DNA of 17,009 nucleotides from a virus. Its lineage: Duplodnaviria > Heunggongvirae > Uroviricota > Caudoviricetes. Positions 2,796 through 17,009 of the stretch are shown here, piece by piece (the stretch's first letter is position 1; the number at the start of each line of letters is the position of its first letter). A model generated the notes under the pieces. It saw only the letters and a list, made by a program, of their open reading frames with translations, ran no database searches and had not been told where the DNA came from. The translations under genes were made by a program, and so were the position numbers. The DNA lies in the IMG/VR virus record IMGVR_UViG_2879736954_000011, one strand, 5' to 3'.

Positions 2796-3083
2796 GCTCT
2801 ATTACGCAATTAAAATTTCTCCAAGTATACTGACTTTTAGTTAATGATCATATAGTTATGTGTAACTGATGAAACAAAACGGAGACACACCAAGCTTTGC
2901 ACTGGATTGCAAGGCTTTGTGCTCTTCTGTGAATGTGTGGCTATATGTTTGAAGATCGTTGTGCCGTATTTGTGACATATATATGGCAACATCATGCATC
3001 AACTTTCTGTTTGTGTCATCAACTATAGCTTAGTGAATGCGGTTAATGCTTGCTAAAACAGATAGTTATGATTGGTGCTACAG

Positions 3084-3129
3084 ATTCGTAATGCGAAGGT
3101 CGTAGGTTCGACTCCTATTATCGGCACCA
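3084..3129 (+). other. attP core: 46-bp identity to the 3' end of tRNA-Thr (thrW) including CCA; not a complete tRNA gene
   Basis: ATTCGTAATGCGAAGGTCGTAGGTTCGACTCCTATTATCGGCACCA matches the anticodon-loop-to-CCA part of E. coli/Salmonella thrW from memory; upstream sequence does not continue as tRNA; int stop codon lies 15 bp away. Confidence 0.8.
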
Positions 3130-3143
3130 TTAAAATCAATAAG

Positions 3144-4307
3144 TTACACATCATTAGTACCTTCCTTATTTTTTGACTGGGACAAATTTGGGACCGATGG
3201 GTTCAGGATCGAGTCTATTTGCCGTGCGTGTTCGGTAAGGTGATTAGGTGCAAGGTGAGCATATCGACGAACCATTTCGATAGACTCCCAGCCTCCCATT
3301 TCCTGTAACACTGACAATGGGACTCCGGCTTGAACCAGCCAACTTGCCCAGGTGTGTCTCAAGTCGTGAAATCTGAAATCATCAATACCAGCCCGTCTCA
3401 GCGCCGCTTTCCAGGCTGTGTTTGCGTCATACCGCATCTTCCTTACTGTTGGCGCTTTCGTTCCGTCTGGTTTGGTACAGCTTTCCTTGTATACAAATAC
3501 CCAACGGTGATGATTCCCGATTTGTTTTTTCAATACGCGACATGCAGTATCATTCAGCGCAACGCCAATTGCGCGGTTTGATTTACTCTCTTCCGGGTTT
3601 ATCCATGCCACCCGGCGCTGCATGTCTATTTGTTGCCATTCAAGGTTGATGATGTTCGAGCGTCTTAAGCCTGTTGCCAGTGCAAATTCAACAACAGACT
3701 TTAATGGCTCCGGACATTCATCAATCAGCCTTTGTGCTTCATGAGGCTCCAGCCAGCGGATACGTTTATTCTTCGGTTGAGGCACTTTAATAATTGGTGC
3801 CTTATCCAGCATTTTCCATTCACGCTCTGCGGCTCTTAGCAGGGCCTTTATAAATGAAAGATGCGTAGCCTTCGTTGCAACGGACGCTGGTTTTGGCGTG
3901 TATTCTGGAACAGGTTTCCCTTTTTTTCTGCATGCTTCTGCCCTGAGTTTCCAGTTTTCCTCATGACGCCGGTTCGTCATTTTCTGCATTGCTGAATAAA
4001 TTTTTGATTCAGTAATGTCTTTTAGTTGCATTCCTGCGAAATGTTGAAGCCAGAATCCGATCCGGCTTTTGTCATCGTCCAGTGATTTTTTATGTGCTTT
4101 CTCTTCGAGCCACCTGACACACGCTTCCTCAAACGTCATATCAGGTATTTCACCAAGTTTGCTGACCCGCCATGCTTCAGCCTTTAGCTTGTCATGGAGC
4201 TCTGTCGCCTGCCTTTTGTCCTTTGTTCCAAGAGACTGTTTAAATCTTTTACCGTTCGGCAATGTGAAACTGGCGTACCATATTTCACTTCTGCGGAAGA
4301 GTGACAT
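3144..4307 (-). CDS. int: Tyrosine integrase, P22-type (thrW-specific)
   Basis: 387 aa; N-terminus [44 protein letters not shown] and C-terminal [17 protein letters not shown]...RYAHLAP catalytic region match P22 Int as I recall it; GAGG RBS. Confidence 0.9.
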
Positions 4308-4534
4308 TTTCTTTCCTCTGTTATGCCATCACCCGCGCTCACCTTGATAGTATGCAGCGGAGACTGAAGCGCCGCAATGCAGGCTTGTCGCGTTGTGAGG
4401 TAAGGAGATTTTGGTTTAGTGGGGTCTTTGCGTGTTGCCTGTAGGCGGCCTGTTCGTATCCAGTTGGTGGCGGTTGGTCTGGATATCTTAAGAAACTGAC
4501 AGGCCTCATCGAGTGTGAGGCTGTATGATTCCAT
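4184..4534 (-). CDS. xis: Excisionase, P22-type
   Basis: 116 aa from [31 protein letters not shown] (winged-helix Xis motif); overlaps the 5' end of int as in lambda/P22; the ORF-track start 30 nt upstream is probably not used. Confidence 0.8.
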
Positions 4535-4784
4535 GGTTACCTCTGCTTTTTGAACGCATGTCACGTAACTTCTTAATGTGTTCTGCCGTTTCGATCTCTT
4601 CTGCTATCCGATCTGCATCAGCTTTATTCACAGGTTCAAAGTCATGATTAAAGCGGAACATGCTGGCGATACATGTTCTGCCTTTTCGGATGTAGTGAAC
4701 TTTGTTGTGGGTAGAACGCAGGATTTTGCAGGGAGTGCCGTGGTGGTCGACGTACCAGGTGTTAGGCAAAATGATTCTGAACAT
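4506..4784 (-). CDS. Small hypothetical protein (DUF4222-like pattern)
   Basis: 92 aa, GAGGTG RBS before ATG at 4784; pattern ...HG...V..V..N.VHY.R.G...C...F...F.PV resembles small prophage proteins of unknown function. Confidence 0.5.
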   Translation of the reverse strand: MFRIILPNTWYVDHHGTPCKILRSTHNKVHYIRKGRTCIASMFRFNHDFEPVNKADADRIAEEIETAEHIKKLRDMRSKSRGNHGIIQPHTR

Positions 4785-4831
4785 TTTTACACCTCAGTTG
4801 GACGATGTTGAAATTTGCTGCCTTGAGGCCA

Positions 4832-5050
4832 TCACAGTCCCCATTGTTTGTTCTTAAGTTCGATCTCCTCCTGGCAACTTGCACAAGTCCGACAACCCTG
4901 AACAGCCAGGCGTCTTCGCTCATCTATCGGATCGCCACACTCACAACAATGAGTTGCGGATACAGTCTGGTAGTTCAGACGACGCATTTTTATTGCTGTA
5001 TTGCGCTGTAATTCTTCGATTTCTGATGCTGAATCAATGATGTCTGCCAT
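4832..5050 (-). CDS. TraR/DksA-family C4 zinc-finger protein
   Basis: 72 aa with CxxC-(17)-CxxC (CCECGDPIDERRRLAVQGCRTCASCQ), the phage TraR-like zinc finger. Confidence 0.7.
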   Translation of the reverse strand: MADIIDSASEIEELQRNTAIKMRRLNYQTVSATHCCECGDPIDERRRLAVQGCRTCASCQEEIELKNKQWGL

Positions 5051-5103
5051 CTTTCATTAATCCCTGAATTGTTGGTTAATACGCTTGAGGGTGAATGCGA
5101 ATA

Positions 5104-5126
5104 ATAAAAAAGGAGCCTGTAGCTCC
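5104..5126 (-). terminator. Possible intrinsic terminator on the minus strand
   Basis: Minus-strand GGAGC-TACAG-GCTCC hairpin followed by TTTTTT, immediately downstream of the 71-aa gene; short 5-bp stem. Confidence 0.35.
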
Positions 5127-5148
5127 CTGATGATTTTGCTTTTCATGT

Positions 5149-5364
5149 TCACCGTTCCTTAAAGACGCCGTTTAACATACCGATTGCCAGACTTAAGTGA
5201 GTCGGTGTGAATCCCATCAGCGTTACCGTTTCGCGGTGCTTCTTTAGTACGCTACGGCAAATGTCATTGACGTTTTTATCCGGAAACTGCTGTCTGGCTT
5301 TTTTGATTTCATAATTAGCCTGACGGGCAATGCTGCGAAGGGCGTTATTATGTTCTATTGTCAT
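5149..5364 (-). CDS. Hypothetical protein, 71 aa
   Basis: Internal ATG at 5364 with GTGAGG RBS, 8 bp after the stop of the upstream 250-aa gene; the longer ORF-track version would overlap that gene by 131 bp. Confidence 0.5.
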   Translation of the reverse strand: MTIEHNNALRSIARQANYEIKKARQQFPDKNVNDICRSVLKKHRETVTLMGFTPTHLSLAIGMLNGVFKER

Positions 5365-5371
5365 ATTGGCC

Positions 5372-6124
5372 TCACACTTCGAATGCCAGTTGAGGGGTAA
5401 AGACGTCCCGTTCAGCGTTGTAATTAAGTGAACTGGCACTGTTGAATGATTCAATGCGTTCCACAAGAACTTGCGTACGGGTTTCTTTACTTGCGGGAGC
5501 ATATGGCGAACCTACCCAGGATTTGTCGATGCCTATATTTCTTGCGACGTTCGTGCTGTCTGCAGACGAAAGCGGTACATGAGTAAAAATGTCTTTATTT
5601 AACATCCGTAACCCATGAATCTTGGTGATTGGGTAGCCGTACTGATCTACAACATGACGTATAAGATCGCGTAGTTTAGCCCGACACGCTCTCGGTCGTT
5701 TTGCATCGTATTCCCCCATCGAGCCGATGCAGACGCGGGGAAACTCATGGCACAGACGAATAAATCGCTCATCTGGTTCGTTCATGTGCCACACCGGAGC
5801 ACCAATAAATTTACCGTGAGGCCATGCCGCAATCAGGGCGTCATTCTCTTCACTGGTTCCGCCGATAACATCCGGGATAACCGCGAATGAGAAACGAGGG
5901 TGATTGCCCCAGCGTTCAACAAATCTGTAATATTCATTCCAGTCTACGGCCTTGTTTTTTGTCCAGAATGTGAATGCACCATTATCAAGAGCAAATGATT
6001 GGGTGACTTCGGAAGCCAGATCAATCTGAGCTGGATTAGCAAAACTGATGAATGCGTGTCTGCCTTTCCAGGCTTTCAACGCACAGGTATCGGGAGTTAT
6101 TGGACCACCGTGAAAATGAATCAT
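5372..6124 (-). CDS. Hypothetical protein with tRNA-guanine transglycosylase (TGT)-like motifs; candidate DpdA-like 7-deazaguanine DNA transglycosylase
   Basis: 250 aa; GGGAGAG RBS; collinear motifs resembling bacterial TGT: FISFAN (cf ILGNTF), LDNGAF (cf TDSGGF, catalytic Asp), FAVIPDV (cf IVMIFDE), CIGSMGE (cf AVGGLAVGE), IHGL (cf LMGVG), NVARN (cf RNARN); no C-terminal Zn subdomain. By-eye comparison only. Confidence 0.4.
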   Translation of the reverse strand: MIHFHGGPITPDTCALKAWKGRHAFISFANPAQIDLASEVTQSFALDNGAFTFWTKNKAVDWNEYYRFVERWGNHPRFSFAVIPDVIGGTSEENDALIAAWPHGKFIGAPVWHMNEPDERFIRLCHEFPRVCIGSMGEYDAKRPRACRAKLRDLIRHVVDQYGYPITKIHGLRMLNKDIFTHVPLSSADSTNVARNIGIDKSWVGSPYAPASKETRTQVLVERIESFNSASSLNYNAERDVFTPQLAFEV

Positions 6125-6279
6125 ACACTCTCCCGTTTATTATTTATCTCCTCAGCCAGCCGCTGGGCTTTCAGCGGATTTCGGATAACAGAAAGGCCGG
6201 GAAATACCCAGCCTCGCTTTGTAACGGAGTAGACGAAAGTGATCGCGCCTACCCGGATATTATCGTGAGGATGCTTCAT
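6121..6279 (-). CDS. Small protein resembling lambda orf60a (52 aa here)
   Basis: [52 protein letters not shown]; ATGA overlaps with exo stop upstream and with the 250-aa gene start downstream (translational coupling). Confidence 0.5.
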
Positions 6280-6956
6280 CGCCATTGCTCCCCAAATACA
6301 AAACCAATTTCAGCCAGTGCCTCGTCCATTTTTTCGATGAACTCCGGCACCATCTCGTCAAAACTCGCCATGTAATTTTCATCCCGCTCAACCACGACAT
6401 AATGCAGGCCTTCACGCTTCATTCGTGGGTCATAGTTGGCAAAGTACCAGGCATCTTTTCGCGTTACCCACATGCTGTACTGCACCTGGGCCATGTAAGC
6501 CGACTTTATGGCCTCGAAACCACCGAGCCGGAATTTCATGAAATCCCGGGAGGTAAACGGGCATTTCAGTTCAAGGCCGTTGCCGTCACTGCATAAACCA
6601 TCGGGAGAGCAGGCGGTGCGCATATTTTCGTCGCGATAGATGATCGGGGATTCAGTAACATTCACGCCGGAAGTGAATTCAAACAGGGTTCTGGCGTCGT
6701 TCTCGTACTGTTTTCCCCAGGCCAGCGCCTTAGCATTAACTTCCGGAGCCACACCGGTGCAAACCTCAGCCAGCAGGGTGTGGAAGTAGGACATTTTCAT
6801 GTCAGGCCACTTCTTTCCTGAGCGGGGCTTTGCTATCACGTTGTGAACTTCTGAAGCGGTGATGACGCCGAGCCGTAATTTGTGCCATGCATCATCCCCC
6901 TGTTCGACAGCTCTCACGTCGATCCCGGTACGCTGCAGGATAATGTCCGGTGTCAT
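6276..6956 (-). CDS. exo: Lambda exonuclease (Red alpha)
   Basis: 226 aa, [43 protein letters not shown]... matches lambda Exo from memory. Confidence 0.95.
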
Positions 6957-7738
6957 GCTGCCACCTTCTGCTCAGTGGCTTTCTGTTTCAGGAATCCAAG
7001 AGCTTTCACTGCTTCGGCCTGTGTCAGTTCTGACGATGCGCGAATGTCGCGGCGAAATATCTGGGAACAGAGCGGCAATAAGTCGTCATCCCATGTTTTA
7101 TCCAGGGCGATCAGCAGAGTGTTAATCTCCTGCATGGTTTCATCGTTAACCGGAGTGATGTCGCGTTCCGGCTGACGTTCTGCAGTGTATGCAGTATTTT
7201 CGACAATGCGCTCGGCTTCATCCTTGTCATAGATACCAGCAAATCCGAAGGCCAGACGGGCACACTGAATCATGGCTTTATGCCGTAACATCCGTTTGGG
7301 ATGCGACTGCCACGGTCCGGTGATTTCTCTGCCTTCGCGGGTTTTGAATGGTTCGCGGCGGCATTCATCCATCCACTCGGTAACGCAGATCGGATGATTA
7401 CGGTCCTTGCGGTAAATCCGGCATGTGCAGGATTCATTGTCCTGCTCAAAGTCCATGCCATCAAACTGCTGGTTTTCATTGATGATACGGGACCAGCCAT
7501 CAACGCCCACCACCGGAACGATGCCGTTCTGCTTGTCAGGGAAGGCGTAAATTTCTTTCGTCCACGGATTAAGGCCGTACTGGTTGGCGACGATCAACAA
7601 TGCGATGAACTGCGCATCGCTGGCATCACCTTTAAATGCCGTCTGGCGAAGAGTGGTGATCAGTTCCTGTGGGTCGACAGAATCCATGCCGACACGTTCA
7701 GCCAGCTTCCCAGCCAGCGTTGCGAGTGCTGTACTCAT
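6953..7738 (-). CDS. bet: Lambda Bet (Red beta) single-strand annealing protein
   Basis: 261 aa, [48 protein letters not shown]... matches lambda Bet; 4-bp overlap with exo. Confidence 0.95.
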
Positions 7739-7743
7739 CCGTT

Positions 7744-8160
7744 TTATACCTCTGAATCAATATCAACCTGGTGGTGAGCAATGGTTTCAACCATGTACCG
7801 GATGTGTTCTGCCATGCGCTCCTGAAACTCAACATCGTCATCAAACGCACGGGTAATGGCTTTTTTGATGGCCCCGTGGCGTTGCAAATGATCGAAGCAT
7901 AGCGATTCAAACAGGTGCTGGGGCAGGCCTTTTTCCATGTCGTCTGCCAGTTCTGCCTCTTTCTCTTCACGGGCGATCTGCTGGTAGTGACGCGCCCAGC
8001 TCTGAGCCTCAAGACGATCCTGAATGTAATAAGCGTTCATGGCTGAACTCCTGAAATAGCTGTGAAAATATCGCCCGCGAAATGCCGGGCTGATTAGGAA
8101 AACAGGAAAGGGGGTTAGTGAATGCTTTTGCTTGATCTCAGTTTCAGTATTAATATCCAT
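7744..8160 (-). CDS. gam: Lambda Gam (RecBCD inhibitor), long form
   Basis: 138 aa, [61 protein letters not shown]... matches lambda Gam. Confidence 0.95.
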
Positions 8161-8258
8161 TTTTTATAAGCGTCGACGGCCTCACGAAACATCTTTTCAT
8201 CGCCAATAAAAGTGGCGATAGTGAATTTAGTCTGGATAGCCATAAGTGTTTGATCCAT
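8115..8258 (-). CDS. kil: Kil (host killing / FtsZ inhibitor)
   Basis: 47 aa [47 protein letters not shown]; overlaps gam start by 46 bp as in lambda. Confidence 0.85.
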
Positions 8259-8391
8259 TTTTTGGGACTCCTGGCTGATTAAGTATGTCGATAAGGCGTT
8301 TCCATCCGTCACGTAATTTACGGGTGATTCGTTCAAGTAAAGATTCGGAAGGGCAGCCAGCAACAGGCCACCCTGCAATGGCATATTGCAT
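8227..8391 (-). CDS. cIII: CIII (FtsH inhibitor, stabilises CII)
   Basis: Manual translation from ATG at 8391: MQYAIAGWPVAGCPSESLLERITRKLRDGWKRLIDIL..., 54 aa; AAGGAG RBS; below the ORF-track length cutoff. Confidence 0.85.
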   Translation of the reverse strand: MQYAIAGWPVAGCPSESLLERITRKLRDGWKRLIDILNQPGVPKNGSNTYGYPD

Positions 8392-8413
8392 GGTGTGCTC
8401 CTTATTTATACAT

Positions 8414-8440
8414 AACGAAAAACGCCTCGAGTGAAGCGTT
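8414..8440 (-). terminator. Terminator-like hairpin plus U-tract upstream of cIII (early-left operon)
   Basis: Minus strand AACGCTTCACTCGAGGCGTTTTTCG: stem then T5, just 5' of the cIII RBS. Confidence 0.4.
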
Positions 8441-8463
8441 ATTGGTATGCGGTAACGCCGCGC

Positions 8464-8832
8464 TCAGGCGGCTTTGATAGTCATATCATCTGAATCAAAT
8501 ATTCCTGATGTATCGATATCGGTAATTCTTATTCCTTCGCTACCATCCATTGGAGGCCATCCTTCCTGACCATTTCCATCATTCCAGTCGAACTCACACA
8601 CAACACCATATGCATTTAAGTCGCTTGAAATTGCTATAAGCAGAGCATGTTGCGCCAGCATGATTAATACAGCATTTAATACAGAACCGTGTTTATTGAG
8701 TCGGTATTCAGAGTCTGACCAGAAATTATTAATCTGGTGAAGTTTTTCCTCTGTCATTACGTCATGGTCGATTTCAATTTCTATTGATGCTTTCCAGTCG
8801 TAATCAATGATGTATTTTTTGATGTTTGACAT
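8464..8832 (-). CDS. ea10: Ea10 (lambda early-left protein, putative ssDNA-binding)
   Basis: 122 aa MSNIKKYIIDYDWKASIEIEIDHDVMTEEKLHQINNFWSDSEYRLNKHG... matches lambda Ea10. Confidence 0.9.
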   Translation of the reverse strand: MSNIKKYIIDYDWKASIEIEIDHDVMTEEKLHQINNFWSDSEYRLNKHGSVLNAVLIMLAQHALLIAISSDLNAYGVVCEFDWNDGNGQEGWPPMDGSEGIRITDIDTSGIFDSDDMTIKAA

Positions 8833-8850
8833 CTATTCATATCCTCACAG

Positions 8851-8879
8851 AAAAAAATTGCCCTCACACTGGAGGGCAA
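8851..8879 (-). terminator. Intrinsic terminator between ral and ea10 (minus strand)
   Basis: Minus strand TTGCCCTC-CAGTGT-GAGGGCAA (8-bp stem) followed by TTTTTTT, directly upstream of the ea10 RBS. Confidence 0.6.
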
Positions 8880-9034
8880 AGAAGATTTCCAATAATCAGA
8901 ACAAGTCGGCTCCTGTTTAGTTACGAGCGACATTGCTCCGTGTATTCACTCGTTGGAATGAATACACAGTGCAGTGTTTATTCTGTTATTTATGCCAAAA
9001 ATAAAGGCCACTATCAGGCAGCTTTGTTGTTCTG

Positions 9035-9214
9035 TTAACCAAGTTCTCTGGCAATCATTGCCGTCGTTCGTATTGCCCATTTATCGACATATTTCCCATC
9101 TTCCATTACAGGAAACATTTCTTCAGGCTTAACCATGCATTCCGATTGCAGCTTGCATCCATTGCATCGCTTGAATTGTCCACACCATTGATTTTTATCA
9201 ATAGTCGTAGTCAT
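9035..9214 (-). CDS. ral: Ral (restriction alleviation), 59 codons here; in-frame TAA where I recall Lys60 in 66-aa lambda Ral
   Basis: Manual translation from ATG at 9214: MTTTIDKNQWCGQ...RTTAMIARELG then TAA (plus-strand TTA at 9035-9037); remaining codons to 9014 read QNNKAA-stop in frame. Confidence 0.75.
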   Translation of the reverse strand: MTTTIDKNQWCGQFKRCNGCKLQSECMVKPEEMFPVMEDGKYVDKWAIRTTAMIARELG

Positions 9215-9284
9215 ACGGATAGTCCTGGTATTGTTCCATCACATCCTGAGGATGCTCTTCGAACTCTTCAAATTCTTCTTCCAT
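9198..9284 (-). CDS. orf28-like small acidic ORF overlapping the ral start
   Basis: GAGGTG RBS + ATG at 9284; MEEEFEEFEEHPQDVMEQYQDYPYDYDY (28 aa); overlaps ral by 17 nt. Confidence 0.55.
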   Translation of the reverse strand: MEEEFEEFEEHPQDVMEQYQDYPYDYDY

Positions 9285-9484
9285 ATATCACCTCAAATAA
9301 GTTGTTTGCTGCGAAAGTAAATACGCTTAAGTTACCTGTTATTTATTCCACCAAGTTCCGTATCTATCTATCCAGTTACACCAATCATCGACACTCCATT
9401 TTGTTGTGTCGCATTTTGGCAACTGGCATGAATATCTACCTTCTTTGTAAAGTCGGCGTTTGACTTTCTTGAGCATGGCTCACC

Positions 9485-9817
9485 TCAATCGTAATAAGCT
9501 GGAATTGATTTTCCGCGTTGCTTCTGGCGGCCTGAGCAAGTCACACCCATTTCACAGCGTGGCTTGCTGTACCATGTGCGCTGATTCTTGCGCTCAATAC
9601 GTTGCAGGTTGCTTTCAATCTGTTCGTGGTATTCAGCCAGCACCGTAAGGTCTATCGGATTCAGTGCGCTTTCTACTCGTGATTTCGGTTTGCGATTCAG
9701 CGAGAGAATAGGGCAGTTAACTGGTTTTGCGCTTACCCCAACCAACAGGGGATTTGCTGCTTTCCATTGAGCCTGTTTCTCTGCGCGACGTTCGCGGCGG
9801 CGTGCTTGTGCATCCAT
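9485..9817 (-). CDS. N: N antitermination protein (lambda N-like, divergent C-terminus)
   Basis: MDAQARRRERRAEKQAQWKAANPLLVGVSAKPVN... arginine-rich motif at N-terminus; AGGAGA RBS; about 90% identical to lambda N by eye, C-terminal tail differs (…GKSIPAYYD). Confidence 0.9.
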   Translation of the reverse strand: MDAQARRRERRAEKQAQWKAANPLLVGVSAKPVNCPILSLNRKPKSRVESALNPIDLTVLAEYHEQIESNLQRIERKNQRTWYSKPRCEMGVTCSGRQKQRGKSIPAYYD

Positions 9818-9927
9818 CTGGATTCTCCTGTCAGTTAGCTTTGAGTAACGCGCCGTGATGCTTATCTCCACGGTTGCTGTCTTGCAGCTGCATTTCGCGC
9901 TACTCAAAGCCTTCTGCTTTGAATGCT

Positions 9928-9958
9928 GCCCTTCTTCAGGGCTAAATTTTTAAGAGCC
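9928..9958 (-). promoter_or_regulatory. nutL (boxA + boxB) N-utilisation site
   Basis: Minus strand GGCTCTTA (boxA-like) then GCCCTGAAGAAGGGC (boxB hairpin) upstream of N. Confidence 0.8.
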
Positions 9959-9991
9959 TCACCTTCAATGGTGGTCAGTGCGTCCTGCTGA

Positions 9992-10062
9992 TGTGCTCAG
10001 TATCACCGCTAGTGGTATTTATGTCAACACCGCCAGAGATAATTTATCACCGCAGATGGTTA
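9992..10062 (-). promoter_or_regulatory. pL promoter with oL1-oL3 operators
   Basis: Minus-strand -35 TTGACA (10022-10027) and -10 GATACT (9999-10004); operator 17-mers TATCACCGCTAGTGGTA, CAACACCGCCAGAGATA, TATCACCGCAGATGGTT. Confidence 0.85.
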
Positions 10063-10206
10063 TCTGTATGTTTTTTATATGAATTTATTTTTTGCAGGGG
10101 GCATTGTTTGGTAGGTGAGAGATCTGAATTGCTATGTTTAGTGAGTTGTATCTATTTATTTTTCAATAAATACAATTGGTTATGTGTTTTGGGGGCGATC
10201 GTGAGG

Positions 10207-10233
10207 CAAAGAAAACCCGGCGCTGAGGCCGGG
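10207..10233 (-). terminator. Intrinsic terminator after rexB (timm-like)
   Basis: Minus strand CCCGGCCTCAGCGCCGGG hairpin followed by TTTTCTTTG, immediately after the rexB stop. Confidence 0.6.
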
Positions 10234-10668
10234 TTATTCTTGTTCTCTGGTCAAATTATATAGTTGGAAAACAAGGATGCATATATGAATGAACGATGCA
10301 GAGGCAATGCCGATGGCGATAGTGGGTATCATGTAGCCGCTTATGCTGGAAAGAAGCAATAACCCGCAGAAAAACAAAGCTCCAAGCTCAACAAAACTAA
10401 GGGCATAGACAATAACTACCGATGTCATATACCCATACTCTCTAATCTTGGCCAGTCGGCGCGTTCTGCTTCCGATTAGAAACGTCAAGGCAGCAATCAG
10501 GATTGCAATCATGGTTCCTGCATATGATGACAATGTCGCCCCAAGACCATCTCTATGAGCTGAAAAAGAAACACCAGGAATGTAGTGGCGGAAAAGGAGA
10601 TAGCAAATGCTTACGATAACGTAAGGAATTATTACTATGTAAACACCAGGCATGATTCTGTTCCGCAT
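10234..10668 (-). CDS. rexB: RexB (membrane component of the Rex exclusion system)
   Basis: 144 aa hydrophobic protein matching lambda RexB. Confidence 0.9.
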   Translation of the reverse strand: MRNRIMPGVYIVIIPYVIVSICYLLFRHYIPGVSFSAHRDGLGATLSSYAGTMIAILIAALTFLIGSRTRRLAKIREYGYMTSVVIVYALSFVELGALFFCGLLLLSSISGYMIPTIAIGIASASFIHICILVFQLYNLTREQE

Positions 10669-10683
10669 AATTACTCCTGATAA

Positions 10684-11523
10684 TTAATCCTTAACTTTGC
10701 CCACCTGCCTTTTAAAACATTCCAGTATATCACTTTTCATTCTTGCGTAGCAATATGCCATCTCTTCAGCTATCTCAGCATTGGTGACCTTGTTTAGAGG
10801 CGCTGAGAGATGGCCTTTTTCTGATAGATAATGTTCTGTTAAAATATCTCCGGCCTCATCTTTTGCCCGCAGGCTAATGTCTGAAAATTGAGGTGACGGG
10901 TTAAAAATAATATCCTTGGCAACCTTTTTTATATCCCTTTTAAATTTTGGCTTAATGACTATATCCAATGAGTCAAAAAGCTCCCCTTCAATATCTGTTG
11001 CCCCTAAGACCTTTAATATATCGCCAAATACAGGTAGCTTGGCTTCTACCTTCACCGTTGTTCGGCCGATGAAATGCATATGCATAACATCGTCTTTGGT
11101 GGTTCCCCTCATCAGTGGCTCTATCTGAACGCGCTCTCCACTGCTTAATGACATTCCTTTCCCGATTAAAAAATCTGTCAGATCGGATGTGGTCGGCCCG
11201 AAAACAGTTCTGGCAAAACCAATGGTGTCGCCTTCAACAAACAAAAAAGATGGGAATCCCAATGATTCGTCATCTGCGAGGCTGTTCTTAATATCTTCAA
11301 CTGAAGCTTTAGAGCGATTTATCTTCTGAACCAGACTCTTGTCATTTGTTTTGGTAAAGAGAAAAGTTTTTCCATCGATTTTATGAATATACAAATAATT
11401 GGAGCCAACCTGCAGGTGATGATTATCAGCCAGCAGAGAATTAAGGAAAACAGACAGGTTTATTGAGCGCTTATCTTTCCCTTTATTTTTGCTGCGGTAA
11501 GTCGCATAAAAACCATTCTTCAT
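10684..11523 (-). CDS. rexA: RexA (sensor component of the Rex abortive-infection system)
   Basis: 279 aa MKNGFYATYRSKNKGKDKRSINLSVFLNSLLADNHHLQVGSNYLYIHKIDGKTF... matches lambda RexA. Confidence 0.9.
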   Translation of the reverse strand: MKNGFYATYRSKNKGKDKRSINLSVFLNSLLADNHHLQVGSNYLYIHKIDGKTFLFTKTNDKSLVQKINRSKASVEDIKNSLADDESLGFPSFLFVEGDTIGFARTVFGPTTSDLTDFLIGKGMSLSSGERVQIEPLMRGTTKDDVMHMHFIGRTTVKVEAKLPVFGDILKVLGATDIEGELFDSLDIVIKPKFKRDIKKVAKDIIFNPSPQFSDISLRAKDEAGDILTEHYLSEKGHLSAPLNKVTNAEIAEEMAYCYARMKSDILECFKRQVGKVKD

Positions 11524-11635
11524 AATTCAATCCATTTACTATGTTATGTTCTGAGGGGAGTGAAAATTCCCCTAATTCGATGAAGATTCTTGCTCAATTG
11601 TTATCAGCTATGCGCCGACCAGAACACCTTGCCGA

Positions 11636-12352
<717 letters not shown>

Positions 12353-12359
12353 TTAAATC

Positions 12360-12425
12360 TATCACCGCAAGGGATAAATATCTAACACCGTGCGTGTTGA
12401 CTATTTTACCTCTGGCGGTGATAAT
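12360..12425. promoter_or_regulatory. oR3-oR2-oR1 operators with divergent pRM and pR promoters
   Basis: TATCACCGCAAGGGATA (12360-12376), TAACACCGTGCGTGTTG (12383-12399), TACCTCTGGCGGTGATA (12407-12423); pR -35 TTGACT and -10 GATAAT upstream of cro. Confidence 0.9.
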
Positions 12426-12440
12426 GGTTGCATGTACTAA

Positions 12441-12650
<210 letters not shown>

Positions 12651-12657
12651 ATAACCC

Positions 12658-12689
12658 CGCTCTTACACATTCCAGCCCTGAAAAAGGGC
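12658..12689 (+). promoter_or_regulatory. nutR (boxA CGCTCTTAC + boxB GCCCTGAAAAAGGGC)
   Basis: Exact boxA and boxB hairpin motifs immediately downstream of cro. Confidence 0.85.
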
Positions 12690-12764
12690 ATCAAATTAAA
12701 CCACACCTATGGTGTATGCATTTATTTGCATACATTCAATCAATTGTTATCTAAGGAAATACTT

Positions 12765-12800
12765 ACATATGGTTCGTGCAAACAAACGCAACGAGGCTCT
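12765..12800 (-). promoter_or_regulatory. pRE-type CII-activated promoter region (TTGC-N6-TTGC)
   Basis: Minus-strand TTGCGTTTGTTTGC overlapping the start of cII, the position of the CII binding site in lambda. Confidence 0.45.
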
Positions 12801-13062
12801 ACGAATCGAGAGTGCGTTGCTTAACAAAATCGCAATGCTTGGAACTGAGAAGACAGCGGAAGCTGTGGGCGTTGATAAGTCGCAGATCAGCAGGTGGAAG
12901 AGGGACTGGATTCCAAAGTTCTCAATGCTGCTTGCTGTTCTTGAATGGGGGGTCGTTGACGACGACATGGCTCGATTGGCGCGACAAGTTGCTGCGATTC
13001 TCACCAATAAAAAACGCCCGGCGGCAACCGAGCGTTCTGAACAAATCCAGATGGAGTTCTGA
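12769..13062 (+). CDS. cII: CII transcriptional activator
   Basis: 97 aa from internal ATG 12769: MVRANKRNEALRIESALLNKIAMLGTEKTAEAVGVDKSQISRWKRDWIPKFSMLLAVLEWG... Confidence 0.9.
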   Translation: MVRANKRNEALRIESALLNKIAMLGTEKTAEAVGVDKSQISRWKRDWIPKFSMLLAVLEWGVVDDDMARLARQVAAILTNKKRPAATERSEQIQMEF

Positions 13063-13084
13063 GGTCATTACTGGATCTATCAAC
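13008..13084 (-). ncRNA. oop: OOP antisense RNA (about 77 nt) overlapping the 3' end of cII
   Basis: Minus-strand sequence GTTGATAGATCCAGTAATGACCTCAG...CGCTCGGTTGCCGCCGGGCGTTTTTTATT with terminal hairpin and U-tract, matching lambda OOP from memory. Confidence 0.6.
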
Positions 13085-13094
13085 AGGAGTCATT

Positions 13095-13994
13095 ATGACA
13101 AATACAGCAAAAATACTCAACTTCGGCAGAGGTAACTTTGCCGGACAGGAGCGTAATGTGGCAGATCTCGATGATGGTTACGCCAGACTATCAAATATGC
13201 TGCTTGAGGCTTATTCGGGCGCAGATCTGACCAAGCGACAGTTTAAAGTGCTGCTTGCCATTCTGCGTAAAACCTATGGGTGGAATAAACCAATGGACAG
13301 AATCACCGATTCTCAACTTAGCGAGATTACAAAGTTACCCGTCAAACGGTGCAATGAAGCCAAGTTAGAACTCGTCAGAATGAATATTATCAAGCAGCAA
13401 GGCGGCATGTTTGGACCAAATAAAAACATCTCAGAATGGTGCATCCCTCAAAACGAGGGAAAATCCCCTAAAACGAGGGATAAAACATCCCTCAAATTGG
13501 GGGATTGCTATCCCTCAAAACAGGGGGACACAAAAGACACTATTACAAAAGAAAAAAGAAAAGATTATTCGTCCGAGAATTCTGGCGAATCCTCTGACCA
13601 GCCAGAAAACGATCTTTCTGTGGTTAAACCGGATGCTGCAATTCAGAGCGGCAGCAAGTGGGGGACAGCAGAAGACCTGACCGCCGCAGAGTGGATGTTT
13701 GACATGGTGAAGACCATCGCGCCATCAGCCAGAAAACCGAATTTTGCAGGGTGGGCTAACGATATCCGCCTGATGCGTGAACGTGACGGACGTAACCACC
13801 GCGACATGTGCGTGCTGTTCCGCTGGGCATGCCAGGACAACTTCTGGTCCGGTAACGTGCTGAGTCCGGCCAAACTCCGCGACAAGTGGACCCAGCTCGA
13901 AATCAACCGAAACAAGCAACAGGCTGGCGTGACAGCCGGCAAACCAAAACTCGACCTGACGAACACTGACTGGATTTACGGGGTGGATTTATGA
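13095..13994 (+). CDS. O: Replication initiator O
   Basis: 299 aa MTNTAKILNFGRGNFAGQERNVADLDDGYARLSNMLLEAYSG... matches lambda O. Confidence 0.95.
   Translation: MTNTAKILNFGRGNFAGQERNVADLDDGYARLSNMLLEAYSGADLTKRQFKVLLAILRKTYGWNKPMDRITDSQLSEITKLPVKRCNEAKLELVRMNIIKQQGGMFGPNKNISEWCIPQNEGKSPKTRDKTSLKLGDCYPSKQGDTKDTITKEKRKDYSSENSGESSDQPENDLSVVKPDAAIQSGSKWGTAEDLTAAEWMFDMVKTIAPSARKPNFAGWANDIRLMRERDGRNHRDMCVLFRWACQDNFWSGNVLSPAKLRDKWTQLEINRNKQQAGVTAGKPKLDLTNTDWIYGVDL
13443..13572 (+). repeat. ori-lambda: four iterons plus AT-rich region inside the O gene
   Basis: ATCCCTCAAAACGAGGGA / AAATCCCCTAAAACGAGGGA / ACATCCCTCAAATTGGGGGA / ATCCCTCAAAACAGGGGGA followed by the AAAAGAAAAAAGAAAAG tract. Confidence 0.8.
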
Positions 13995-14692
13995 AAAACA
14001 TCGCCGCACAGATGGTTAACTTTGACCGTGAGCAGATGCGCCGGATCGCCAACAATATGCCGGAACAGTACGACGAAAAGCCGCAGGTACAGCAGGTAGC
14101 GCAGATCATCAACGGTGTGTTCAGCCAGTTACTGGCAACTTTCCCGGCGAGCCTGGCTAACCGTGACCAGAATGAACTGAACGAAATCCGCCGCCAGTGG
14201 GTTCTGGCTTTCCGGGAAAACGGGATCACCACAATGGAACAGGTTAACGCTGGAATGCGCGTAGCCCGTCGGCAGAATCGACCATTCCTGCCATCACCCG
14301 GGCAGTTTGTCGCCTGGTGCCGGGAAGAAGCATCTGTTAACGCCGGGCTGCCAAACGTCAGCGAGCTGGTTGATATGGTTTACGAGTATTGCCGGAAGCG
14401 TGGCCTGTATCCGGATGCAGAGTCTTATCCGTGGAAATCGAACGCGCATTACTGGTTGGTTACCAACTTGTACCAGAACATGCGGGCCAATGCGCTGGCT
14501 GACGCGGAATTACGGCGCAAGGCTGCCGATGAACTGACCTGTATGACAGCGCGAATTAACCGTGGTGAGACGATACCTGAACCAGTAAAACAACTTCCTG
14601 TTATGGGCGGTAGACCTCTAAATCGTGCACAGGCTCTGGCGAAGATCGCAGAAATTAAAGCTAAGTTCGGACTGAAAGGAGCAAGTGTATGA
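13991..14692 (+). CDS. P: Replication protein P (DnaB helicase loader)
   Basis: 233 aa MKNIAAQMVNFDREQMRRIANNMPEQYDEKPQVQQVAQIINGVFSQLLATF... matches lambda P; ATGA overlap with O. Confidence 0.95.
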   Translation: MKNIAAQMVNFDREQMRRIANNMPEQYDEKPQVQQVAQIINGVFSQLLATFPASLANRDQNELNEIRRQWVLAFRENGITTMEQVNAGMRVARRQNRPFLPSPGQFVAWCREEASVNAGLPNVSELVDMVYEYCRKRGLYPDAESYPWKSNAHYWLVTNLYQNMRANALADAELRRKAADELTCMTARINRGETIPEPVKQLPVMGGRPLNRAQALAKIAEIKAKFGLKGASV

Positions 14693-14979
14693 CGGGCAAA
14701 GAGGCAATTATTCATTACCTGGGGACGCATAAGAGCTTCTGTGCACAGGACGTTGCCGCGGTAACAGGCGCAACCGTAACCAGCATAAATCAGGCTGCGG
14801 CTAAAATGGCGCGGGCAGGAATCCTGGTCGTTGATGGTAAGGTCTGGCGAACGGTGTATTACCGGTTCGCTACCAGAGAAGAATGGGAAGGAAAGGTGAG
14901 CACGAATCTGATTTTTAAGGAGTGTCGCCAGAGTGCCGCGATGAAACGGGTATTGGCGGTATATGGAGTTAAAAGATGA
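14689..14979 (+). CDS. ren: Ren (Rex exclusion protection)
   Basis: 96 aa MTGKEAIIHYLGTHKSFCAQDVAAVTGATVTSINQAAAKMARAG...; overlaps P stop. Confidence 0.9.
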   Translation: MTGKEAIIHYLGTHKSFCAQDVAAVTGATVTSINQAAAKMARAGILVVDGKVWRTVYYRFATREEWEGKVSTNLIFKECRQSAAMKRVLAVYGVKR

Positions 14980-15004
14980 CCATCTACATTACTGAGCTAA
15001 TAAC

Positions 15005-15036
15005 AGGCCTGCTGGTAATCGCAGGCCTTTTTATTT
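15005..15036 (+). terminator. tR2-type intrinsic terminator
   Basis: AGGCCTGC-TGGTAATC-GCAGGCCT (8-bp stem) followed by TTTTATTT, between ren and ninB. Confidence 0.7.
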
Positions 15037-15052
15037 GGGGGAGAGGGAAGTC

Positions 15053-15493
15053 ATGAAAAAACTAACCTTTGAAATTCGATCTCCAGCACATCAGCAAAAC
15101 GCTATTCACGCAGTACAGCAAATTCTTCCAGACCCAACCAAACCAATCGTAGTAACCATTCAGGAACGCAACCGCAGCTTAGACCAAAACCGAAAGCTTT
15201 GGGCTTGCCTTGGTGACGTCTCTCGTCAGGTTGAATGGCATGGTCGCTGGCTGGATGCAGAAAGCTGGAAGTGTGTGTTTACCGCAGCATTAAAGCAGCA
15301 GGACGTTGTTCCTAACCTTGCCGGGAATGGCTTTGTGGTAATAGGCCAGTCAACCAGCAGGATGCGTGTAAGCGAATTTGCGGAGCTATTAGAGCTTATA
15401 CAGGCATTCGGTACAGAGCGTGGCGTTAAGTGGTCAGACGAAGCGCGACTAGCTCTCGAATGGAAAGCGCGATGGGGAGATCGGGCTGCATGA
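15053..15493 (+). CDS. ninB: NinB (Orf-family recombination mediator)
   Basis: 146 aa from ATG 15053 (GAGAGGGAAG RBS): MKKLTFEIRSPAHQQNAIHAVQQILPDPTKPIVVTIQERNRSLDQNRKLWACLGDVSRQ... Confidence 0.9.
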   Translation: MKKLTFEIRSPAHQQNAIHAVQQILPDPTKPIVVTIQERNRSLDQNRKLWACLGDVSRQVEWHGRWLDAESWKCVFTAALKQQDVVPNLAGNGFVVIGQSTSRMRVSEFAELLELIQAFGTERGVKWSDEARLALEWKARWGDRAA

Positions 15494-15819
15494 CTATCAA
15501 ATCAAATACGCCAGCACACGACAAGGACTGCTGGCAAACGCCGCTTTGGCTTTTTGATGCACTGGATATTGAGTTTGGATTCTGGCTGGATTCGGCAGCG
15601 AGCGACAAAAATGCTCTGTGCGCTCACTGGTTAACTGAGGCCGACGACGCGCTAAATTCTGAGTGGATAAGCCACGGTGCAATCTGGAATAACCCACCGT
15701 ACAGCAATATCAGGCCGTGGGTGGAAAAAGCCGCTGAGCAGTGCATACAACAGCGACAGACGGTAGTGATGCTTGTGCCAGAGGATATGTCTGTCGGATG
15801 GTTCAGCAAGAGAGCATGA
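15490..15819 (+). CDS. Phage DNA N6-adenine methyltransferase (Dam-like), probably 3'-truncated
   Basis: 109 aa from ATG overlapping the ninB stop (ATGA); N-terminal DKDCWQTPLWLFDALDIEFGF and catalytic NPPY motif (IWNNPPYSN); ends about 30 aa after NPPY, shorter than I expect for this family. Confidence 0.6.
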   Translation: MTIKSNTPAHDKDCWQTPLWLFDALDIEFGFWLDSAASDKNALCAHWLTEADDALNSEWISHGAIWNNPPYSNIRPWVEKAAEQCIQQRQTVVMLVPEDMSVGWFSKRA

Positions 15820-15901
15820 AAAACCTCGGGGCAGCCATCGAATGATGCCATCTACAGGGGTTAAAATAACCACCATCATTTCATAACAATACCTGCTGAC
15901 T

Positions 15902-16492
15902 ATGAAGATCTACGTCATCAAAATAGCAGTTCATGGAGTCAGTCCGATGGTCTGGCGTCGGCTGAGAATTGCTGCCGACACGTCACTGGCCGCGCTTCAC
16001 TTCATTTTCCAGATAGTGCAGGGCTGGGGGGACGACCATCTCCATCAATTTCACATTTATGGCAAAGATTACGGTATCTCCTACGAAGGAGGCATCGGTT
16101 TTGTCGATAATCCGTTCCGGGTCGTGATTGATGATTTTGCTTTTGATGCTGGCGATCGCTTTACCTATGAATACAATTTCTTTGAGCACTGGCTTCATGA
16201 CATTCGTGTTGAGGCCATTTATGAAAACTCTACGCTGAAAGCGCCGTTTTGTATAAGCGGCCATGGTATGCCCGGAGCCACAGCTGCGGATGAGTTCGAT
16301 AAAACCCTGGCGTTTCTTGAAGCTATCGTTAATGCGGATGATGAAACAACGGTCGGCGAGATCCGCCCTTTTGCTGACGACCTGGATGCTGTCAGGTTCA
16401 ACCGCCACAAAATCAACCGGCAACTGAGCAGGCTCGACCTTGCATCTCCGGTACTGGAGCCTGAAGTTATCTGGCTGGGCCGTCGTCGCTGA
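15902..16492 (+). CDS. PRiA4_ORF3-family protein (plasmid pRiA4b ORF-3-like), unknown function
   Basis: 196 aa; N-terminal pattern Y.IKI...V.P.VWRRL.I..D.SL..LH..IQ...GW.DDHLH.F and FTYEYNF..W.H.I.VE, which I recognise as the PRiA4_ORF3 domain signature; no obvious RBS. Confidence 0.55.
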   Translation: MKIYVIKIAVHGVSPMVWRRLRIAADTSLAALHFIFQIVQGWGDDHLHQFHIYGKDYGISYEGGIGFVDNPFRVVIDDFAFDAGDRFTYEYNFFEHWLHDIRVEAIYENSTLKAPFCISGHGMPGATAADEFDKTLAFLEAIVNADDETTVGEIRPFADDLDAVRFNRHKINRQLSRLDLASPVLEPEVIWLGRRR

Positions 16493-16493
16493 C

Positions 16494-16580
16494 TGATGTC
16501 TATAAAGGTATACGTTTTCAGCATGCCTCTCAGATCCCCGAAAAAATGTCTATAAACCTCCCTAAATCAGTGTTTATGGA
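16494..16580 (+). promoter_or_regulatory. Candidate recombinase binding region (res-like) upstream of the serine recombinase gene
   Basis: Direct 11-bp repeat ATGTCTATAAA at 16496-16506 and 16546-16556, plus imperfect inverted partner GTTTATGGA at 16572-16580 (TCTATAAAC...GTTTATGGA). Confidence 0.3.
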
Positions 16581-16628
16581 TTATTCTTTAAATCTCTATG
16601 ATGTTTAAAGACCTTCCGGAGGTTTTGC

Positions 16629-17009
16629 GTGCAATATGCCTACATCAGGGTAAGCTCGGCCGATCAGAATACGGCCCGTCAGGAAGAGGCATTGTCAAAG
16701 GCGGGTTTTCAGCCTGATAAAATTTGTGTTGAGCATGCCAGCGCGAAGGACACAAACCGCCCGGGGTTACAGGAACTCCTGGGGCAATTACGCCCTGGTG
16801 ATACGCTTCTGGTTCATTCCATCGATCGCCTTTGCCGGAATATGTCGGATATGTGCGCTGTCACCACCCGGCTTCGTGACCAGGGCGTTACCCTTATTTT
16901 TCTGAAAGAGCAGCTGACGTTCAGCGCCGGCACAAACAATCCGATGCAGGAACTGCAGCTGCACATGATGTCGGCATTCAGCCAGTTTGAACGAGCCTTA
17001 CTGAAGGAA
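16629..17009 (+). CDS. Serine recombinase (resolvase/invertase family), N-terminal catalytic domain; 3'-partial at window end
   Basis: GTG start after GGAGG RBS; VQYAYIRVSSADQNTARQ (catalytic Ser in the YxRVSS motif), DTNRPGLQELL, GDTLLVHSIDRLCRN, SAFSQFERALL; frame open to the window end; absent from the ORF track because it has no stop. Confidence 0.8.
   Translation, partial: MQYAYIRVSSADQNTARQEEALSKAGFQPDKICVEHASAKDTNRPGLQELLGQLRPGDTLLVHSIDRLCRNMSDMCAVTTRLRDQGVTLIFLKEQLTFSAGTNNPMQELQLHMMSAFSQFERALLKE

Follow-up and report, generated by a model that had tools for sequence, protein, structure and literature searches.

ISKpn19, a plasmid-borne insertion sequence, truncates dam in an SfI prophage

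Introduction

The insertion sequence (IS) ISKpn19 was first tabulated from the Klebsiella pneumoniae plasmid pK245 (NC_010886.1), as a member of the p-MULT 4/ISAzba1 group (Guerillot et al., 2014; PMC3942029). Its entry there covers positions 35120 to 37970 of that accession (2,851 bp), has the same end sequences as the copies considered below, and lists a 463-aa transposase together with the passengers "pRiA4b_ORF-3, S Recomb" (PMC3942029). Resolution of cointegrates was proposed for the serine recombinase of this group (PMC3942029). In ISfinder, the family of ISKpn19 is ISKra4. The element is well known from resistance plasmids of enterobacteria.

The phage to which the present locus was compared is Enterobacteria phage SfI (NC_027339/JX509734), a serotype-converting phage of Shigella flexneri 1a. 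SfI carries an uninterrupted dam gene, encoding an adenine methyltransferase of 175 aa, which is followed by ninE, ninF, ninG, ninH, and Q.

Results

The window, by which we mean the whole 17,009-nucleotide stretch of DNA that was analyzed, is 100% identical from position 3084 to position 15810 to positions 21231 to 33957 of SfI, a stretch reaching from int past ninB to codon 107 of dam (Table 1). Downstream of ninB, the original prediction had described a Dam-like open reading frame (ORF), a PRiA4_ORF3 gene, a spacer with repeats, and a serine recombinase gene, and all four are present at the stated positions. It had also taken dam to stand in place of ninC after ninB. The arrangement is there, but it is not a replacement particular to the window, since dam 3' of ninB, where lambda has ninC, is the normal order in SfI, 434, HK140, mEp043, Sf101, and several hundred other lambdoid phages.

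Table 1. Coordinates of features in the right-hand part of the window
Feature	Positions	Strand	Remarks
ninB, SfI prophage, intact	15053..15493	+	Pfam NinB PF05772, E=1.1e-54; 100% identical to SfI
Truncated dam: 107 Dam codons (15490-15810), then Arg, Ala, and TGA from the IS left inverted repeat	15490..15819	+	109 aa; Pfam PF05869, TIGR01712
Predicted 9-bp target site GTTCAGCAA	15801..15809	.	Putative; duplicate would be expected at right end of IS
ISKpn19, left 1,200 bp (of 2,851 bp; ISKra4 family, ISAzba1 group), ends at window edge	15810..17009	+	100% identity to plasmid copies
IRL, left terminal inverted repeat GAGAGCATGAAAAACCTCGGGGCAGC	15810..15835	+	Pairs (22/26) with GCTGCCCCAATATTTTTTATGCTCTC at far end of complete copies
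ISKpn19 passenger gene 1, PRiA4_ORF3 (MM3350-like), 196 aa	15902..16492	+	PF07929, E=8.3e-32
Spacer, candidate res site and/or recombinase promoter	16493..16628	+	Putative function
ISKpn19 gene 2, small serine recombinase (resolvase type), first 127/190 codons, GTG start	16629..17009	+	PF00239 Resolvase, E=9.8e-34

The truncation of dam is seen directly when the ORF is aligned to full-length phage Dam proteins. Residues 1 to 107 are identical to the N terminus of SfI Dam at 107 of 107 positions, and phage identity ends at 15809/15810, past Dam codon 107 (query position 811, which is window position 15810). Against the Pfam Dam profile PF05869, the ORF gave an E value of 4.4e-41 while covering positions 1 to 104 of 169 alone, whereas the intact 175-aa SfI Dam covers positions 1 to 167; against TIGR01712 (phage_N6A_met), it scored 174.6 bits over positions 1 to 106 of 165. 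The ORF therefore shares with the phage Dam family the N-terminal 107 residues, including the NPPY catalytic motif at residues 68 to 71, but it is missing about 65 of the 169 Pfam profile positions, and the full-length domain of some 165 to 169 profile positions is absent from it. A search for a protein identical to the 109-aa ORF gave no match. Judged by these alignments, the ORF is a gene fragment and not a short variant of Dam. The early stop that had been described is real, although it lies 38 residues past NPPY and not about 30. Homologues at full length are 175 aa and not 109 aa, and the proposal that an inserted element had truncated the methyltransferase gene was thus confirmed, with the breakpoint after codon 107 and ISKpn19 beginning at 15810.

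The identity of the inserted element and its left boundary can likewise be read directly from the window. The segment from 15810/15811 to 17009 is 100% identical to many plasmid copies of ISKpn19 from E. coli, Klebsiella, Salmonella, and Citrobacter, which are annotated "ISKra4-like element ISKpn19 family transposase." These copies always begin GAGAGC, and the left flank is different in every copy inspected. Homology to a 78%-identical relative on the Yersinia ruckeri plasmid pYR4 starts exactly at the G of position 15810. Positions 15810 to 15850 are the reverse complement of the ISKpn19 end ...GGCTGCCCCGAGGTTTTTCATGCTCTC tabulated previously, and the gene order, PRiA4_ORF3 and then the serine recombinase, agrees with that report as well (PMC3942029). 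Set against the ISKpn19 reference, the window has the same left inverted repeat and the same two genes in order and sequence, with no sequence difference over 1,200 bp; the location alone, in dam of an SfI prophage, is new. We have very little doubt that all sequence from 15810 on belongs to ISKpn19 and cuts dam short. The element is one already known, and this is an ordinary insertion of a common plasmid-borne IS.

Complete copies of ISKpn19 are 2,851 bp long, bounded by 26-bp terminal inverted repeats (Table 1), and carry three genes, encoding PRiA4_ORF3, a 190-aa serine recombinase, and a 463-aa Mutator-like DDE transposase. The product of the third gene reached 381.5 bits with NF033572, the NCBIfam model for ISKra4 transposases (cut-off, 205); in the model search it matched ISKra4, ISLre2, and ISH6 (Mutator-like) models only, and no Tn3-type transposase model. 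Target duplications of 9 bp were found at two independent simple insertions (CTGATCAAG in L004 and TATGACAAG in L006). Most of the 1.2-kb segment seen in the window is present in at least 1,830 plasmid records and 572 E. coli genomes, and 656 of its 702 places in E. coli are on plasmids. In PLSDB, 161 Shigella plasmids match the segment (identity was not split between genera), which makes the availability of a donor probable.

The window stops at 17009, within the recombinase gene; the transposase gene, which lies just beyond, and the right inverted repeat were seen in the sequence-identical copies.

The PRiA4_ORF3 protein has a single solved relative, 2i1s, labeled "hypothetical protein" (E=2.4e-12). 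It is annotated as WP_012477564.1 in all ISKpn19 copies inspected except L006, in which the ORF is shortened. A literature search on the function of PRiA4_ORF3/MM3350-like proteins gave annotation mentions alone, apart from one paper (PMC3942029). The linkage of this gene to a recombinase, which had been put forward as uncharacterized, was in fact published in that paper in 2014, with ISKpn19 listed by name.

The part of the serine recombinase within the window covers positions 2 to 130 of the 145 in the PF00239 profile, and the catalytic-serine motif YIRVSSADQ occupies residues 5 to 13. In identical copies the complete gene has 573 nt and encodes 190 aa (WP_001493762.1). The full protein extends about 45 residues past the catalytic domain and matched no Pfam helix-turn-helix family at an E value of ≤0.01. 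The spacer upstream of the gene contains the 11-bp sequence ATGTCTATAAA twice, as perfect direct repeats, at 16496 to 16506 and 16546 to 16556. Three of its blocks, TGTCTATAAAGGTATAC, TCTATAAAC, and TGTTTAT.GA.TATTCT.TAAA, are kept in the Y. ruckeri relative. Mean column identity in the spacer alignment with that relative is 85%, compared to 78% overall, where the 182 aligned columns comprise the spacer and some 20 bp from the gene on either side.

Discussion

The probable explanation for this locus is that a copy of ISKpn19 transposed into dam of the SfI prophage as a simple, complete insertion, with a resistance plasmid very probably as the donor. The ISKra4-family Mutator-like transposase most likely cut the 26-bp inverted-repeat ends and joined them into the target, and its staggered cut would have generated a 9-bp target duplication. 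The IS went in between positions 15809 and 15810, with the G at 15810 fitting phage and IS alike, and the uninterrupted SfI sequence at the target reads ...GGTTCAGCAAGGCTCTGGAGAG.... In complete copies the element runs from IRL through PRiA4_ORF3, the spacer, the serine recombinase gene, and the DDE transposase gene to the right inverted repeat (IRR). A simple insertion predicts 1,651 further bases of ISKpn19 ending ...AATATTTTTTATGCTCTC, then the duplicate GTTCAGCAA, then GGCTCTGGAGAGTATTGACG of the remaining dam, and then ninE to Q. At the left, insertion past codon 107 takes the C-terminal 68 residues away from Dam, with the left inverted repeat supplying the stop codon that yields the 109-aa ORF; the truncated methylase is most likely inactive. 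Searches for this particular event gave no match for the left junction as an exact 34-nt pattern in genome contigs or metagenome contigs, nor for the predicted right junction as a gapped pattern in genome contigs, and 0 E. coli complete genomes covered at least 80% of a junction-spanning query.

The alternative that survives best, although we think it unlikely, is that the window captures just the left margin of a more extensive rearrangement, in which the right end of ISKpn19 is still joined to a segment with a truncated resolvase gene and qnrS1, or to plasmid DNA. The IRL end would then have joined the prophage by replicative or cointegrate-type transposition, or by an adjacent deletion or inversion, and what comes after the IS need not be the remaining dam and the late region. 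Four of the eight ISKpn19 copies inspected (L001, L005, L007, and L009) have an identical right flank, GGTCGTATGGAAGCTGG..., that leads to qnrS1, but four different left flanks, so IRL junctions are possible without a clean two-ended insertion. In another copy (L002) a target duplication is missing and the genes on either side, bcsG and yhjV, are each truncated, pointing to an IS-associated deletion; a cointegrate-forming mechanism would also accord with the resolvase gene. Against this stand the clean two-ended insertions with 9-bp duplications (L004 and L006), and the window itself holds no resistance genes and no plasmid DNA. That the right end of the copy in dam is still linked to the quinolone-resistance segment with qnrS1, or that PRiA4_ORF3 is an obligatory cofactor of the transposase, we consider a slim chance.

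The original prediction had offered two other readings, and the evidence weighs against both. In the first, PRiA4_ORF3 and the recombinase gene form an element whose own serine recombinase moves it, as with IS607-type elements or serine integrases. The recombinase gene does adjoin the junction and has repeats upstream, but 26-bp inverted repeats with 9-bp duplications are the signature of DDE transposition, and an ISKra4-family DDE transposase is encoded within the same repeats. The recombinase, at only 190 aa, scored far under the cut-offs of the relevant models, with 25.7 bits for the IS607 serine transposase (cut-off, 110) and, for large serine recombinases, 58.9 for XisF (cut-off, 375) and 37.9 for CcrB (cut-off, 900), and the insertion sites of ISKpn19 are diverse, unlike those of site-specific integration. 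We regard mobilization by the recombinase as very improbable. The second reading, a native nin-region moron in which the short methylase, PRiA4_ORF3, and the recombinase form an inherited phage module, accords with the orientation of the genes as in the pR operon but can be practically dismissed, since the 1.2-kb insert is absent from 50,697 phage records even at blastn sensitivity (word size, 11), matches plasmid IS copies at 100% identity, and interrupts a gene that is intact and followed by ninE to ninH and Q in the otherwise identical SfI.

Simple insertion of ISKpn19, the reading we prefer, carries little biological weight in itself, as one more case of a common plasmid-borne IS interrupting, and most likely inactivating, a nonessential phage methylase gene. 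Its presence in dam does mark plasmid-to-chromosome traffic in a Shigella-type host, and in a serotype-converting prophage the insertion may have an attenuating or polar effect on the expression of nin genes and Q downstream of it. If the IS were joined to qnrS1 after all, an inducible phage that converts the O-antigen serotype of Shigella would carry a plasmid-derived resistance module that could be transduced. For the annotation of phages, a short Dam followed by PRiA4_ORF3 and a recombinase is to be read as an IS insertion and not as a phage module.

The PRiA4_ORF3 protein is probably a conserved passenger or a cofactor in the ISKpn19 lineage. It could be an obligatory cofactor of the Mutator-like transposase lineage, and its role in ISAzba1-group elements is a question general to the IS lineage rather than to the dam locus. 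The serine recombinase would be accessory, and by analogy with the resolvases of the Tn3 family, it most probably resolves cointegrates or multimers at a res-like site in the spacer. Experiments on transposition of ISKpn19, on its recombinase, or on its res site were not found in the literature searched. By the general view, IS256-type Mutator-like elements transpose via circular intermediates and not via cointegrates, a route that would not account for the need for a resolvase in ISKpn19.

ISKpn19 resembles the Tn3-family transposons in outline, in that both pair a DDE transposase with a small serine recombinase whose gene is preceded by a site containing repeats. The terminal repeats of the Tn3 family are some 38 bp long, and its target duplications measure 5 bp. 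ISKpn19 differs in its ISKra4/Mutator-like transposase, its 26-bp repeats, its 9-bp duplication, and the extra PRiA4_ORF3 gene, and it is not a member of that family. A Tn3-family identity had been suggested by Tn3 transposase genes near several of the copies; these are unrelated, truncated neighbors.

Truncation of the phage dam gene

The phage DNA up to the dam locus belongs to a prophage of SfI, a serotype-converting phage of Shigella flexneri, and positions 3084 to 15810 are 100% identical to positions 21231 to 33957 of the SfI record. SfI itself has an unbroken dam gene, with ninE, ninF, ninG, ninH, and Q after it; the dam product, from the same ATG, is 175 amino acids long and covers positions 1 to 167 of the 169 in the Pfam Dam profile. 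Over its first 107 residues the window ORF matches SfI Dam without a difference (107/107), and the left end of the insertion sequence ISKpn19 adjoins dam directly after codon 107, so that the final two codons and the TGA stop are supplied by inserted DNA (Arg, Ala, stop). In a profile search against TIGR01712 the ORF scored 174.6 bits over positions 1 to 106 of 165. This comparison with a phage lacking the insert, a check proposed in the original prediction, bears out one of the two readings offered there, that a mobile element had truncated the methyltransferase gene. The ORF does stop soon after its NPPY motif (residues 68 to 71), but 38 residues beyond it and not about 30. Loss of the last 68 residues of a 175-residue single-domain protein would most likely abolish methyltransferase activity.

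The other components first described, a PRiA4_ORF3 gene, a repeat-bearing spacer, and a serine recombinase gene, were recovered along with the Dam-like ORF by Pfam matches and exact repeats. The original prediction also described ninC as replaced. A Dam gene next after ninB is the usual order in SfI, 434, HK140, mEp043, Sf101, and many other lambdoid phages, and as judged from these gene orders it is ordinary mosaicism.

Features at the dam locus and in the adjoining insert
Feature	Coordinates	Strand	Length	Evidence
ninB	upstream of truncated dam			Pfam PF05772, E=1.1e-54
Dam-family ORF	15490-15819	+	109 codons	Pfam PF05869, E=4.4e-41, profile positions 1-104 of 169
PRiA4_ORF3 family gene	15902-16492	+	196 codons	PF07929, E=8.3e-32
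Spacer	16493-16628		136 bp	two exact 11-bp direct repeats, ATGTCTATAAA, at 16496 and 16546
Serine recombinase gene (GTG start; runs past window end)	16629-17009	+	127 codons	resolvase catalytic domain PF00239, E=9.8e-34

Identity of the insert

Megablast of positions 15000 to 17009 against 50,697 phage records gave matches in 408 records. Among the matches listed, all ended at query positions 811 to 812 (window 15810 to 15811), and none covered the sequence beyond. The 1.2 kb past the breakpoint had zero matches in the same 50,697 records, by blastn as well. Junction patterns found no match in genome or metagenome collections, nor did an exact-protein look-up. Each of nine ISKpn19 copies, the window included, has its own sequence to the left of GAGAGC, and a Yersinia ruckeri pYR4 relative (78% identity) is alignable from exactly the first base of GAGAGC, which puts the left boundary of the window copy at 15810.

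The 1.2-kb segment is 100% identical to plasmid and Escherichia coli copies. In PLSDB it matched 2068 plasmids, with one match covering at least 80% of the segment in 1830. The host genera of the matching plasmids include Klebsiella (901), Escherichia (574), Shigella (161), and Salmonella (150). Among complete E. coli genomes, 621 of 5426 had a match (in 572 of these it spanned 80% or more of the segment), and 656 of the 702 places were on plasmids. In the annotated records inspected, the PRiA4_ORF3 and recombinase genes are always followed by an "ISKra4-like element ISKpn19 family transposase" of 463 amino acids, which scored 381.5 bits against NCBIfam NF033572, "ISKra4 family transposase" (cut-off, 205), and more weakly matched ISLre2 and ISH6 Mutator-like transposase models. 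Terminal inverted repeats of 26 bp, GAGAGCATGAAAAACCTCGGGGCAGC and GCTGCCCCAATATTTTTTATGCTCTC, matching at 22 of 26 positions, enclose the three genes and delimit an element of 2851 bp.

Guerillot et al. (2014, PMC3942029) assigned ISKpn19 to the ISAzba1 group, among the prokaryotic Mutator-like "p-MULT 4" transposases, and proposed cointegrate resolution as the task of the recombinase. The supplementary table of that study names the element in K. pneumoniae NC_010886.1 (35120-37970), with 26-bp repeats (22 matching), a 463-residue transposase, and the passengers "pRiA4b_ORF-3, S Recomb"; the tabulated ends are identical to those found here. By its sequence, then, the insert is this already described and very common insertion sequence, mentioned in the literature searched mostly as adjoining qnrS1, and the event is an ordinary one, a known element interrupting a phage gene. 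The 2014 description supersedes the idea that linkage of PRiA4_ORF3 to a recombinase was uncharacterised. A novel moron is rejected, since the insert matches no phage record among the 50,697 and is 100% identical to a plasmid insertion sequence; a recombinase-mobilised element likewise fails, because the recombinase is of small resolvase type and a DDE transposase lies within the same inverted repeats.

Proposed insertion mechanism and target site

The DDE transposase would insert ISKpn19 through a 9-bp staggered cut. Two of the eight other copies inspected are clean insertions with a 9-bp direct duplication at their ends. One has a truncated pcoA on one side and, on the other, the end of an adjacent TnAs1 (Tn3-family) transposon (duplication, CTGATCAAG); the other lies inside an ISAs1 element of the E. 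coli 64EVA chromosome (duplication, TATGACAAG). This second copy (locus positions 3505-6354) falls a single base short of full length, at 2850 bp, and its PRiA4_ORF3 ORF is reduced to 525 nt. Both duplications end in CAAG. Because uninterrupted SfI reads GGTTCAGCAAGGCTCTGG at the insertion site and the first base of the element is G, the simplest reading of the window target is GTTCAGCAA (15801-15809). The right junction, beyond the window end, is predicted to read ...ATGCTCTC GTTCAGCAA GGCTCTGGAGAG... The dam sequence immediately right of the insertion point, GCTCTGGAGAG (SfI locus positions 1459-1471, compared with window 15811-15823), holds GCTCT and AGAG; their likeness to the outermost bases of the element ends, GAGAGC and GCTCTC, may be accidental or may point to a preferred kind of target.

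The window stops inside the element. This copy is probably complete, with a target duplication and the rest of the prophage beyond it, but the junction may be part of a larger rearrangement. Four of the eight other copies share one right flank, a truncated-resolvase/qnrS1 segment, with differing left flanks, and a chromosomal copy in E. coli 22AR0322, with a truncated gene on either side, has no target duplication. Set beside the two clean insertions, we consider such a rearrangement unlikely, and a simple insertion into dam is preferred.

The right flank common to the four plasmid copies begins GGTCGTATGGAAGCTGG... and is a resolvase gene without its N-terminus, with qnrS1 next in three of them; all four left flanks differ from one another. 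ISKpn19 seems to remain joined to this segment as new junctions form at its left end. In one of the three, the DNA past qnrS1 includes a truncated transposase gene of the ISKra4 family. The 22AR0322 copy (locus positions 8003-10853) is bordered by bcsG and yhjV, both truncated; these truncations and the missing duplication imply an IS-associated deletion.

Recombinase, spacer, and PRiA4_ORF3 protein

The complete ISKpn19 recombinase has 190 residues, with the active-site context YIRVSSADQ, and scores far under the cut-offs of the IS607, XisF, and CcrB models. Its length and these scores rule out an IS607-type serine transposase or an integrase, and it is classed here as a small resolvase-type enzyme. 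Alignment of the spacer with that of the Y. ruckeri relative, extended by about 20 bp into each flanking gene (182 columns in all), gave a mean column identity of 85%, versus 78% across the whole two-gene segment, and the conserved blocks include both copies of the TCTATAAA core. The sequence TGTCTATAA is similar to TGTCYNNTA, the half-site of Tn3 and gamma-delta resolvases, and positions 16493 to 16628 are therefore read as a candidate res site plus promoter. For the PRiA4_ORF3 protein, the literature searched held no functional study, and the one solved relative, 2i1s, is labelled "hypothetical protein."

Left part of the window

Positions 1 to 883 are an IS600 (IS3 family) copy cut by the window start, which shares 98.5 to 99.2% identity with E. 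coli copies; its ORF (1-816) has rve and HTH_21 domains. Such a copy is typical of a Shigella-type chromosome. No tRNA gene was called anywhere in the window, and positions 2874 to 3147 are 97.8% identical to a stretch of phage HK542 that carries the annotations attP ("similar to thrW tRNA gene") and integrase. The 100% identity to SfI begins at 3084, and the integrase ORF occupies 3144 to 4307 (- strand). Positions 922 to 2927 match phage Sf101 at 91.5% identity, over its "O-acyltransferase B" gene and the end of its tail-protein gene, and the ORF at 1623 to 2795 (- strand, 390 amino acids) is an Acyl_transf_3 protein. From these matches, an O-antigen acyltransferase-type gene of a second, Sf101/Sf6-like prophage remnant is placed immediately beyond the int end of the SfI prophage.
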